Origin: Erysipelotrichaceae bacterium
GTDB taxonomy: Bacteria; Bacillota_I; Bacilli_A; RFN20; CAG-826
Length of the DNA: 64,000 bases
Assembly (NCBI GenBank): GCA_015059185.1
Contig: SVAY01000008.1
Coordinates: 1,587 to 65,586 of the forward strand
Direction of reading: 5' to 3'
This document shows positions 60,743-61,617 of this stretch, in pieces (position 1 is the stretch's first letter; every line of letters starts with the position of its first letter). The notes beneath the pieces were generated by a model that was given only the letters and a program-made list of their open reading frames with translations, was not told the origin of the DNA and searched no databases. The translations under genes were made by a program, and so were the position numbers.

Positions 60743-60795
60743 TTTTTAACCGGGTCGAATTCGACCCCTTTAAACCTTCGAAATCGAGGGGTTTA
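60743..60795. repeat. Tandem pair of palindromes filling the KilA-N / XRE-Vat spacer
   Basis: GGGTCGAATTCGACCC (60752-60767) and CCTTCGAAATCGAGGGG (60775-60791), separated by TTTAAA. Confidence 0.8.
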
Positions 60796-61617
60796 TTTCT
60801 TTTCAATCCTCTTTACTGGTTTGACATTATTCTTGTTAAATAATTCTTTTTCTCTATTTGCCTCTTTGTTAAGAAGGACTAGTCTTTCTTGCTGCGATAG
60901 CTTTTGAGTAATCAACATTGAGTTTAAATATTCAAGGTTGCTAAGAATCGCTAACTCAATAGTATTTGCATAATCTCGTATATTGCCTTCTTTGCCTACG
61001 TTCGTATCTCTCCACTCTTTTGCAGTTTTACCAAACAGGGCAACATTCAAAAGGTCTGCTTCACTAGCATAAATAAAATTCTTTTGTTCGTTTGATAATT
61101 CAACAGGTACTAAATATTCCTTAACGGCATCCGTATGAATAAGGTAATTTAACTTAGTTAACAATCTCTTACCGTGCCACTCAAGCTGTTCAGATTCTTG
61201 TGCCTTTAATCTTTGGAATTCCTTAATAATATATAGTTTTACTTCCGCAGAAATCCAAGACGCAAATTCTAATGCAATATCACGATGGGCAAAAGTGCCA
61301 CCGCCATATTTGCCAGATTTAGTTTTGAACCCAATTGCATTAGTATTTTTTACCCATTTGGTAGGAGTCATTACAAAGTAATTATGGCCAGATTCATTTT
61401 TAAACTGGTCGAATTCGACCATGTTAAAATCTGGGTTATTTATTTGCTCCCAGATGCCAATAAATTCAATAGTCGCTCTCAATCTCATCCAGTTTTTAAT
61501 TACATCTGCAGGAAATTCTTGATTTTTAATTTTTGCCATATCGGTCAGACTAACATAATCATCATCACCAATACCTGTGACATTAATATCAATATTTTTA
61601 ATAGTGATTTTGTTCAT
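60793..61617 (-). CDS. KilA-N domain DNA-binding protein
   Basis: DYVSLTDMAK, IKNWMR, GKYGGGTFAHRDIALEFASWIS, YIIKEFQRLK. Confidence 0.88.
   Translation of the reverse strand: MNKITIKNIDINVTGIGDDDYVSLTDMAKIKNQEFPADVIKNWMRLRATIEFIGIWEQINNPDFNMVEFDQFKNESGHNYFVMTPTKWVKNTNAIGFKTKSGKYGGGTFAHRDIALEFASWISAEVKLYIIKEFQRLKAQESEQLEWHGKRLLTKLNYLIHTDAVKEYLVPVELSNEQKNFIYASEADLLNVALFGKTAKEWRDTNVGKEGNIRDYANTIELAILSNLEYLNSMLITQKLSQQERLVLLNKEANREKELFNKNNVKPVKRIEKK

Follow-up and report, generated by a model that had tools for sequence, protein, structure and literature searches.

A coding palindrome conserved as nucleic acid in KilA-N domain genes: a putative cognate site of the encoded protein

The 64,000-nt stretch of Erysipelotrichaceae bacterium DNA analysed here as a whole (the window; contig SVAY01000008.1 of assembly GCA_015059185.1, positions 1,587 to 65,586) carries a KilA-N domain gene in which ten consecutive codons, 64-73, spell a near-palindrome of 30 bp. 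Comparison of homologous genes shows that these codons double as a dyad-symmetric nucleic-acid element across the whole gene family. Tentatively, and with a confidence that stays somewhat short of an even chance, we read the element as the putative cognate dyad site of the gene's own KilA-N protein. A first-pass annotation of the window had pointed to an in-frame palindrome in this gene and to related units in the spacer behind it; both are borne out by the sequence, with the unit named B here placed one position further in than the original 60744-60774 (Table 1).

An in-frame dyad at a single locus

Codons 64-73 read TTT AAC ATG GTC GAA TTC GAC CAG TTT AAA (61428 down to 61399). They contain a perfect 16-bp core, TGGTCGAATTCGACCA, and outer arms, TTTAA(C) and TTTAAA, that pair with two mismatches. 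With up to two mismatches allowed, the 14-bp core GGTCGAATTCGACC is found twice in the window where 0.10 occurrences are expected, a count reached by one of 100 shuffles, and in the whole 1.3-Mb genome (34% G+C) this core is limited to the in-gene copy and unit B. A covariance model built from homologs returned the same two places as the only genome sites at E < 1e-4, the in-gene copy scoring 43.3 bits (E 6e-9). With two copies in 1.3 Mb, both at the KilA-N locus, a dispersed palindromic repeat (repetitive extragenic palindrome, REP; miniature inverted-repeat transposable element; Rickettsia palindromic element) is ruled out. Homologs also encode the peptide palindromically (see below), so that two of the three observations named in the first-pass annotation as refuting it are not borne out. 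An intrinsic terminator is likewise ruled out for the transcribed strand, as the minus-strand scan was empty both at the in-gene copy and in the spacer. Elsewhere in the same genome, a weak match to the model (TTTAAATTCATCAAATTTGATGGAATTATA, C15:113578-113607; 25 bits, E 0.02) lies in frame (..IKFDEFK..) within a gene for a 570-aa DNA methyltransferase-like protein and is probably due to chance.

Conservation of the dyad across the family

About 170 loci with KilA-N homologs at 38-92% identity were fetched, 167 of which cover codons 64-73; their hosts include Bacilli, Brocadia, Ignavibacteria, Patescibacteria, Deltaproteobacteria, Flavobacteriales and a Nanoarchaeia bin. A 30-bp dyad is present at the homologous ten codons in almost all loci (about 165), with at least 12 of 15 pairs in 116/167 and all pairs in 11, as exemplified by TTTAAACTGGTCGAA followed by TTCGACCAGTTTAAA (FKLVEFDQFK) and TTTAATGTTACTGAA followed by TTCAGTAACATTAAA (FNVTEFSNIK). 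The consensus consists of TTTAA, five variable bases, TCGAATTCGA, five further variable bases and TTAAA. No other centre or codon boundary in these KilA-N genes reaches 12/15 pairs.

The variable bases covary across the arms although two to four amino acids change. Among 84 distinct in-gene sequences, 85.8% of cells pair and changes on both sides are found at 7 of 13 stem pairs (146 cells), values that 0/500 shuffles matched; sliding the partners lowers pairing to 58% or less. In 85 of 140 genes, codons 66 and 71 are exact reverse complements of each other, a relation realised by 13 different codon pairs with such residue combinations as P/G, G/P, L/Q, R/A, S/R, R/T, V/N and H/V. Synonymous choice follows the same rule: GAC or GAT at Asp70 goes with Val (GTC) or Ile (ATC) at residue 67 (Fisher 1e-4). 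The C-ending codons remarked upon in the first-pass annotation proved to be a family-wide trait, since Val is written GTC in 86% of its occurrences within the palindrome vs 12% in the remainder of these genes, the corresponding values being 58% vs 19% for Asp as GAC and 62% vs 17% for Ile as ATC. Mean pairing amounts to 12.2/15 vs 8.2 for synonymous recodings of the same peptides, and identical 30-mers are kept between genes with only about 60% protein identity. Covariation and codon choice taken together therefore indicate that selection acts on the nucleic acid at codons 64-73 and that the peptide follows. The suggestion that this is a general and possibly undescribed feature holds for the KilA-N family: homologs encode the peptide palindromically and with covariation, and our full-text search of the library consulted returned no description of a coding palindrome in KilA-N genes.

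Copies outside the gene

An exact scan of IMG/VR for TTTAA-N5-TCGAATTCGA-N5-TTAAA returned at least 118 matches, for an estimated chance expectation well under one (20 specified bases). The scan required intact conserved blocks and decay of those blocks in free copies is therefore not measurable. Among the matches listed, to which all viral counts in this section refer, 49/118 lie in KilA-N open reading frames (ORFs) and 69/118 lie outside ORFs matching the family profile. In these free copies the spanning open frame is mostly short and a second, different unit often abuts; their neighbours are diverse and no constant neighbour gene was found. A KilA-N domain is encoded in only 2 of 41 free-copy records and in 0 of the 13 that are at least 90% complete, and a phage-encoded KilA-N partner for the free copies is rejected on these counts. 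Variable bases are perfectly paired in 30/49 in-gene vs 13/69 free copies (Fisher 5e-6 for all copies, 0.04 for unique sequences), and mean arm agreement is 3.71 in-gene, 2.83 in free copies and 1.94 for random pairs of in-gene half-sites. As for half-site words, 70 of the 108 in free copies fall within the 44-word in-gene vocabulary. Examples of free copies are found in Streptococcus pyogenes prophages, between a small-ORF stop and an apparent hairpin-plus-T-run (read by eye), in Streptococcus prophages of the Javan series and in phage LR1 of Lactobacillus reuteri, where the copy is flanked by the integrase and a DUF6414 gene; in Streptococcus suis satellite phages the copy is an in-gene one, within the KilA-N gene.

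Next to the window's gene, the 59-bp spacer that separates it from the following gene, a fusion of an XRE-type helix-turn-helix and a Vat-like acetyltransferase (XRE-Vat), is filled by units A and B, with TTTAAA common to both. Unit B is, as first annotated, identical to the inverted in-gene copy at 27/31 positions; it scores 45.4 bits on the plus vs 38.6 bits on the minus strand in the covariance model. Its variable bases are those of the 'FNRVEFDP' allele, which is in-gene in other genomes, and 25 nt are identical to the in-gene sequence of locus L096 and others. Unit A resembles an inverted 'FKPxDFEGFK' in-gene allele, falls below the model's threshold in the window and is terminator-like on the plus strand only; its homolog in L029 is the exact reverse complement, over 27 nt, of that locus's own in-gene palindrome.

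With the covariance model of the in-gene element, extra copies were detected in about 30 loci, and the two-unit spacer between KilA-N and XRE-Vat genes is kept in at least 14 loci of the window's clade. Unit B has homologs in at least 11 relatives, where pairwise identity amounts to 98% for the core, 96% for the right outer arm and 63-70% for the variable bases. Since four-fold sites of the KilA-N genes are only 44% identical, the core of unit B is under purifying selection, and units with such an invariant core are therefore not mere debris. The arms of unit B are mostly non-complementary across the clade and look like halves of different alleles (CTGGTC...GACGCG, GGGGTC...GATCAA).

Contrary to what would be expected if flanking copies tracked the in-gene variant, a possibility raised in the first-pass annotation, the own in-gene allele has a median rank of 0.66 among all alleles for 32 extragenic copies and is in the closest 10% for 2 of the 32. 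The window and L015 have the same in-gene allele while both of their flanking units differ, and every flanking copy has, at a distance of 0-4 nt, a counterpart among the in-gene alleles of other genomes. Judged by their bases, the window's two units are copies of other variants and not of the resident one.

In distant phyla, the copies stand upstream of the gene and belong to small arrays with more than one palindrome type. These were considered as promoter operators and rejected, as several lie in KilA-N gene fragments or in such mixed arrays. A second palindrome type, TTAATTATGGCGAATTTGCCATAATTAA (FNYGEFAIIK), stands beside the KilA-N type in upstream arrays and phages (L074 2930-3120, L077 400-480, L083 1820-1950, L223 and L293), lies in L083 inside a related-gene fragment, WERIYNPNFNYGEFAIIKSQAGLNSY, and probably represents the in-gene element of a sister subfamily of KilA-N genes.

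Stem or sequence

The covariation of base pairs is also what a hairpin predicts, be it in mRNA or in single-stranded or cruciform DNA, which would affect how fast the KilA-N message is translated, how stable it is or how it is processed. Folded as RNA, the in-gene palindrome reaches -12.3 kcal/mol (z = -3.7), and the spacer gives two hairpins that could form an intercistronic stabiliser or processing site before XRE-Vat. The centre may be asymmetric (GATTTC, GAAATC), as a loop permits, the unit A stem is kept by compensatory change among relatives (ACCG/CGGT vs ACCA/TGGT), and intact genes show perfect pairing more often than free copies do. However, strand asymmetry is absent (25 G.U-type vs 32 A.C-type mismatches on the sense strand, outer Lys-to-Arg positions excluded), free copies are found in either orientation and in varied contexts, and across the clade unit B keeps its core but not the complementarity of its arms. 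A plain hairpin does not need sequence conservation of core and outer arms, yet both are conserved in free and extragenic copies, and this conservation in non-coding copies suggests that the sequence itself is read and not the stem alone. We consider the hairpin unlikely as an explanation of the in-gene element, and its extension to the spacer is doubtful to the same degree.

Linkage to the DNA-binding domain

Variants of the in-gene palindrome at the variable bases are discrete and stable. Gene pairs with at least 90% identity of the N-terminal domain (codons 64-73 excluded) never show a difference of 5 nt or more in the palindrome, and those sharing a palindrome resemble each other more closely at the N-terminal domain than over the C-terminal part. 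The mosaic gene P0051 has a different N-terminal part of 115 residues and a C-terminal part nearly identical to that of the window's protein. Recombination breakpoints of KilA-N genes lie near nt 340, 450 and 580; in the triplet scan none of 15 events breaks at nt 190-219, a weak negative given the small sample. Comparison of gene pairs shows that the variant is inherited together with the N-terminal DNA-binding domain, and with breakpoints located elsewhere, domain and embedded palindrome therefore travel as one block, swapped by recombination with a breakpoint near nt 340. As side observations, several independent triplets break at about nt 335-357 (residue ~113-118), near the end of the KilA-N domain, and mosaic KilA-N genes have exchanged the entire N-terminal domain while their C-terminal part is nearly identical. 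One KilA-N copy that has decayed and contains in-frame stops (L013/L014, G044:C17:16847-17211; 38% identity) keeps 14/15 of the palindrome, TTTAAACCCACCGAATTCGGTAGGTTTAAA, a single case.

The lack of breakpoints at nt 190-219 speaks, within the limits of the small sample, against a crossover hotspot at the palindrome. The first-pass proposal that units and in-gene peptide are alternative cassettes exchanged by inversion or gene conversion does not agree with the data either: alleles are stable in N-terminal-similar pairs, which excludes fast switching from neighbouring units, breakpoints are those listed above, and an inversion between the in-gene copy and unit B would split the KilA-N gene. 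A broader recombination signal, in which exchange at the core between alleles shuffles half-sites and gene segments and the units are leftovers of displaced alleles or a conversion reservoir, would account for the many extragenic and free copies that are chimeric, with arms from different in-gene alleles, for the share of free half-site words, among the matches listed, that belong to the in-gene vocabulary, and for the closeness of each extragenic copy to an allele in-gene elsewhere. Some gene fragments also start or stop at the palindrome, L074 ending at residue 73, L095 beginning at residue 67 and L079 at residue 62. Yet the fragment in L150 ends 15 residues beyond the palindrome, the site is in the middle of a domain and not at a module border, and neither breakpoints at the element, among the 15 events of the small triplet scan, nor fast allele switching is seen. 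The 25 Pfam families most often met in 114 flanking ORFs include no recombinase, so that none is a regular neighbour, and the fold of the protein is not that of a recombinase or nuclease. This explanation is in our view improbable.

Operators or relics

XRE-type regulators usually bind short palindromes as dimers, and the units could hence be operators of the helix-turn-helix of the downstream XRE-Vat product that borrow the KilA-N core, with a separate and older role for the in-gene palindrome; this would concern the window's clade only. In the window, unit B directly precedes the ribosome-binding site of XRE-Vat (60736-60742), its 12-14-bp core is conserved in the clade, and the succession of a KilA-N gene and an XRE-type gene is conserved. 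However, the same gene pair is found without units in L100, L021, L020 and L106, the units of L103 stand before a different gene, and the same tandem units are found free in phages with neither gene. We hold such a role to be quite improbable, and the first-pass idea that the in-gene site is reused as operator of the next gene fits poorly for the additional reason that no promoter room is left before the ribosome-binding site. Finally, template switching in quasi-palindromes is an established mutational process, and an old quasi-palindrome without function could be kept by it in a tolerant helix (positions 66 and 71 accept very different residues), the free copies being debris of lost genes, but we judge this very improbable: a mutational bias should act at least equally on free copies, which are less complementary, identical 30-mers persist at ~60% protein identity, the unit B core is far more conserved than four-fold sites, and complete phage genomes devoid of a KilA-N gene hold intact copies (among the matches listed). 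Better pairing in genes than in free copies argues against purely mutational homogenisation of the arms, and complementarity kept mainly in intact genes is therefore not a by-product of template-switch mutation.

A putative site for the gene's own product

In-gene complementarity, sequence conservation and linkage to the DNA-binding domain are the reasons why we favour the cognate-site reading. The KilA-N protein would recognise the 30-bp element encoded in its own gene as a dimer, each domain reading one half-site; a dimer is suggested by the long helix predicted at residues 124-162 and by weak fold likeness to the dimeric DdrC. A homodimer with lineage-specific half-site preference would give covariation without a hairpin, and a site written in the codons of the DNA-binding domain would keep protein and site inseparable. 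Such a site would serve self-recognition, that is, autoregulation and/or a self-immunity signal marking gene-carrying DNA, like aba of the BstA system described below. Units A and B of the window, the arms of which need not match each other, may be retained non-cognate or half-cognate sites of the same kind as the free phage copies.

Several observations weigh against a cognate site. The dyad covariation is explained equally well by a hairpin, and more than 20 loci have the 'PTDFEG' allele, the asymmetry of which is stable. BstA has no detectable similarity to the window's protein and its gene no comparable palindrome. Among the weakest points is that flanking units are conserved and yet non-cognate: they do not carry the resident allele, and poor binding by the resident protein would be expected if specificity lay in the variable bases, so that their conservation needs another reason.

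A doubtful extension of the cognate-site reading is that the family, which matches the phage-defence candidate PDC-S22, comprises candidate defence or exclusion proteins with a DNA 'address' in their own codons, the phage copies being decoys or passwords. Phages without a KilA-N gene would then carry single or tandem copies that neutralise host variants, discrete five-base variants would result from an arms race, and units A and B would be passwords for other variants.

The KilA-N gene and its neighbourhood

The translation of the gene includes NNPDFNMVEFDQFKNESGH. Its product matches Pfam KilA-N (PF04383) at residues 18-139 (E 2.1e-20; 73 bits vs a cut-off of 23.8), and residues 2-266 align to positions 5-271 of 281 of the PADLOC PDC-S22 profile (E 3.1e-117). 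The AlphaFold2 model has a mean predicted local distance difference test score of 82 and a helical C-terminal part in which residues 124-162 form the single long helix; codons 64-73 correspond to a loop (61-65) and the beginning of a helix (66-75), both situated midway through the KilA-N domain. A fold search with the model gave weak matches only, to DdrC (dimeric, DNA-binding) and to the Mbp1 DNA-binding domain, and a sequence search of solved structures with the same protein gave no match. On PDC-S22, the literature search found no account of function, the term occurring in a Streptococcus suis genome survey. Only 9 of 61 related genomes have the gene, which makes it accessory; its closest relatives are in uncultured rumen and gut Bacilli/Mollicutes-like genomes.

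Table 1. Coordinates of the features discussed, in window positions
Feature	Position	Strand	Basis and remarks
In-frame 30-bp near-palindrome, codons 64-73 (F64-N-M-V-E-F-D-Q-F-K73)	61399-61428	-	Sequence, covariance model
Unit B	60745-60774		Plus strand TTTAACCGGGTCGAATTCGACCCCTTTAAA; inverted relative to the gene
Unit A	60769-60795 (about)		Minus strand AAACCCCTCGATTTCGAAGGTTTAAA; overlaps the KilA-N stop codon
KilA-N domain gene, PDC-S22 candidate	60793-61617	-	274 aa; Pfam, PADLOC profile
XRE-type helix-turn-helix and hexapeptide (Vat-like) acetyltransferase fusion gene	59834-60733	-	HTH_3 E 4e-12, Hexapep E 2e-14 (Pfam)
Two-way terminator-like hairpin	61690-61710		Terminator scan; between tRNA-Ala and KilA-N gene
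tRNA-Ala	61725-61800		Upstream of KilA-N gene
tRNA-Arg	61872-61948		Upstream of KilA-N gene

The terminator scan found no terminator-like site on the minus strand between the KilA-N and XRE-Vat genes, and for that reason the two are probably co-transcribed as one operon, the predicted two-way hairpin (Table 1) bounding the transcription unit upstream. An XRE-type gene follows the KilA-N gene in many gut and rumen Bacilli (L015, L096, L029, L107, L039 and others), fused to a Vat-like hexapeptide acetyltransferase in the window's clade; in a group at 66-72% identity the XRE-type gene begins at or overlaps the KilA-N stop, without palindrome units. The arrangement looks like a conserved two-gene module. 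Family-wide, the neighbours of the KilA-N gene are varied and include type I restriction-modification, RhuM, DNA methylase, Cas6 and Schlafen-type genes, i.e., the company of defence islands with no constant partner.

Downstream of XRE-Vat, two minus-strand ORFs (56972-58534, 520 aa, and 58691-59710, 339 aa) gave no Pfam or PADLOC match; the former has an Asn/Ile/Glu-rich low-complexity tail at its end. At the other side of the window, a RhuM-like gene of 408 aa (5949-7175, minus strand) has a duplicated N-terminal module, with an imperfect coding palindrome around a 5-nt spacer at the matching place of each repeat (6623-6649 and 6978-7002). These read GAACTGTTGCA-TTTTT-TGCAGTAGTTC and AACTGTAAAG-TTTCG-CTTTACTATT, and their inner arms differ (TGCA/TGCA vs AAAG/CTTT), in agreement with a separate remark of the first-pass annotation.

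Comparison with known systems

The closest logic is that of BstA from Salmonella prophage BTP1, a KilA-N abortive-infection protein with a cognate DNA element, aba, overlapping its own gene (Owen et al. 2021, PMC8585504). The 63-bp aba extends across the start codon, with 29 bp before the gene and 34 bp within it, needs terminal direct CCCGCC repeats and acts as DNA, cognate to its own protein variant (PMC8585504). Both cases combine a KilA-N protein, here a phage-defence candidate, with a short DNA element overlapping its gene, and in both the gene is often prophage-borne, as the 49/118 viral-contig matches in KilA-N genes (among the matches listed) indicate for the present family. Unlike aba, the dyad lies inside domain-coding codons and is not a start-codon element with terminal direct repeats. 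BLASTP of the window's KilA-N protein against BTP1 BstA gave E 3.3 and no meaningful alignment, and no comparable palindrome was found in the bstA gene. Membership in the BstA/aba system is ruled out by protein dissimilarity, by position and anatomy of the element and by this lack of a palindrome; by analogy, however, BstA/aba is the only experimental precedent for a protein tied to its own site.

Auxiliary operators located within genes, for example lacO2 (lacZ) and galOI (galE), are also dyad-symmetric protein-binding sites in coding sequence. They sit in a regulated target gene, whereas the KilA-N element sits in the codons of its own DNA-binding domain, and they are not known to be conserved family-wide via compensatory amino-acid changes or to stand free in phages.

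The homologous regions (hrs) of baculoviruses consist of imperfect palindromes of 30 bp in tandem, centred on an EcoRI site and recognised by the IE-1 dimer, which is able to bind half-palindromes (PMC2834656, PMC2830988). Size, imperfect dyad, central GAATTC and tandem copies are alike, a resemblance only; unlike the KilA-N element, hrs are non-coding and form long arrays of repeats, and the protein that binds them, IE-1, does not belong to the KilA-N proteins. Baculovirus genomes with hrs hold many bro genes. The Bro-N domain is described as related to KilA-N.

Coding palindromes with both arms translated have been described in Nematomorpha mitochondrial genes (PMC6649704). Similarly, Rickettsia palindromic elements are inserted in frame in coding sequence. 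In both, as here, an inverted repeat overlaps coding sequence and both arms are translated, but those repeats are many, long and lineage-specific, in many genes per genome, whereas the KilA-N element is single, short and at a fixed position across phyla. REP elements, with tens to hundreds of dispersed copies per genome, and bacterial interspersed mosaic elements likewise form short palindromes after gene ends in small arrays of mixed orientation, unlike the KilA-N element with its two genome copies. None of these systems shares the combination of a fixed-position dyad across phyla, compensatory codons, domain linkage and free phage copies without the gene.

Implications

If the cognate-site reading is true, these genes would embody a previously unrecognised way to tie a DNA-binding protein to its target, the site being written in the binding domain's own codons and its symmetry maintained even where that costs amino-acid changes, in bacterial as well as archaeal phyla and in their phages. 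The free-standing palindrome would then be a simple sequence mark for finding phage counter-measures. Even if the element were an mRNA hairpin, a structure conserved through compensatory codons in a protein-coding gene over such distances would be unusual and would matter for gene annotation, codon-model analyses and synthetic recoding of KilA-N genes. A true cognate site would, beyond this, offer a handle on the function of KilA-N proteins, which are very common and poorly understood in phages and defence islands.

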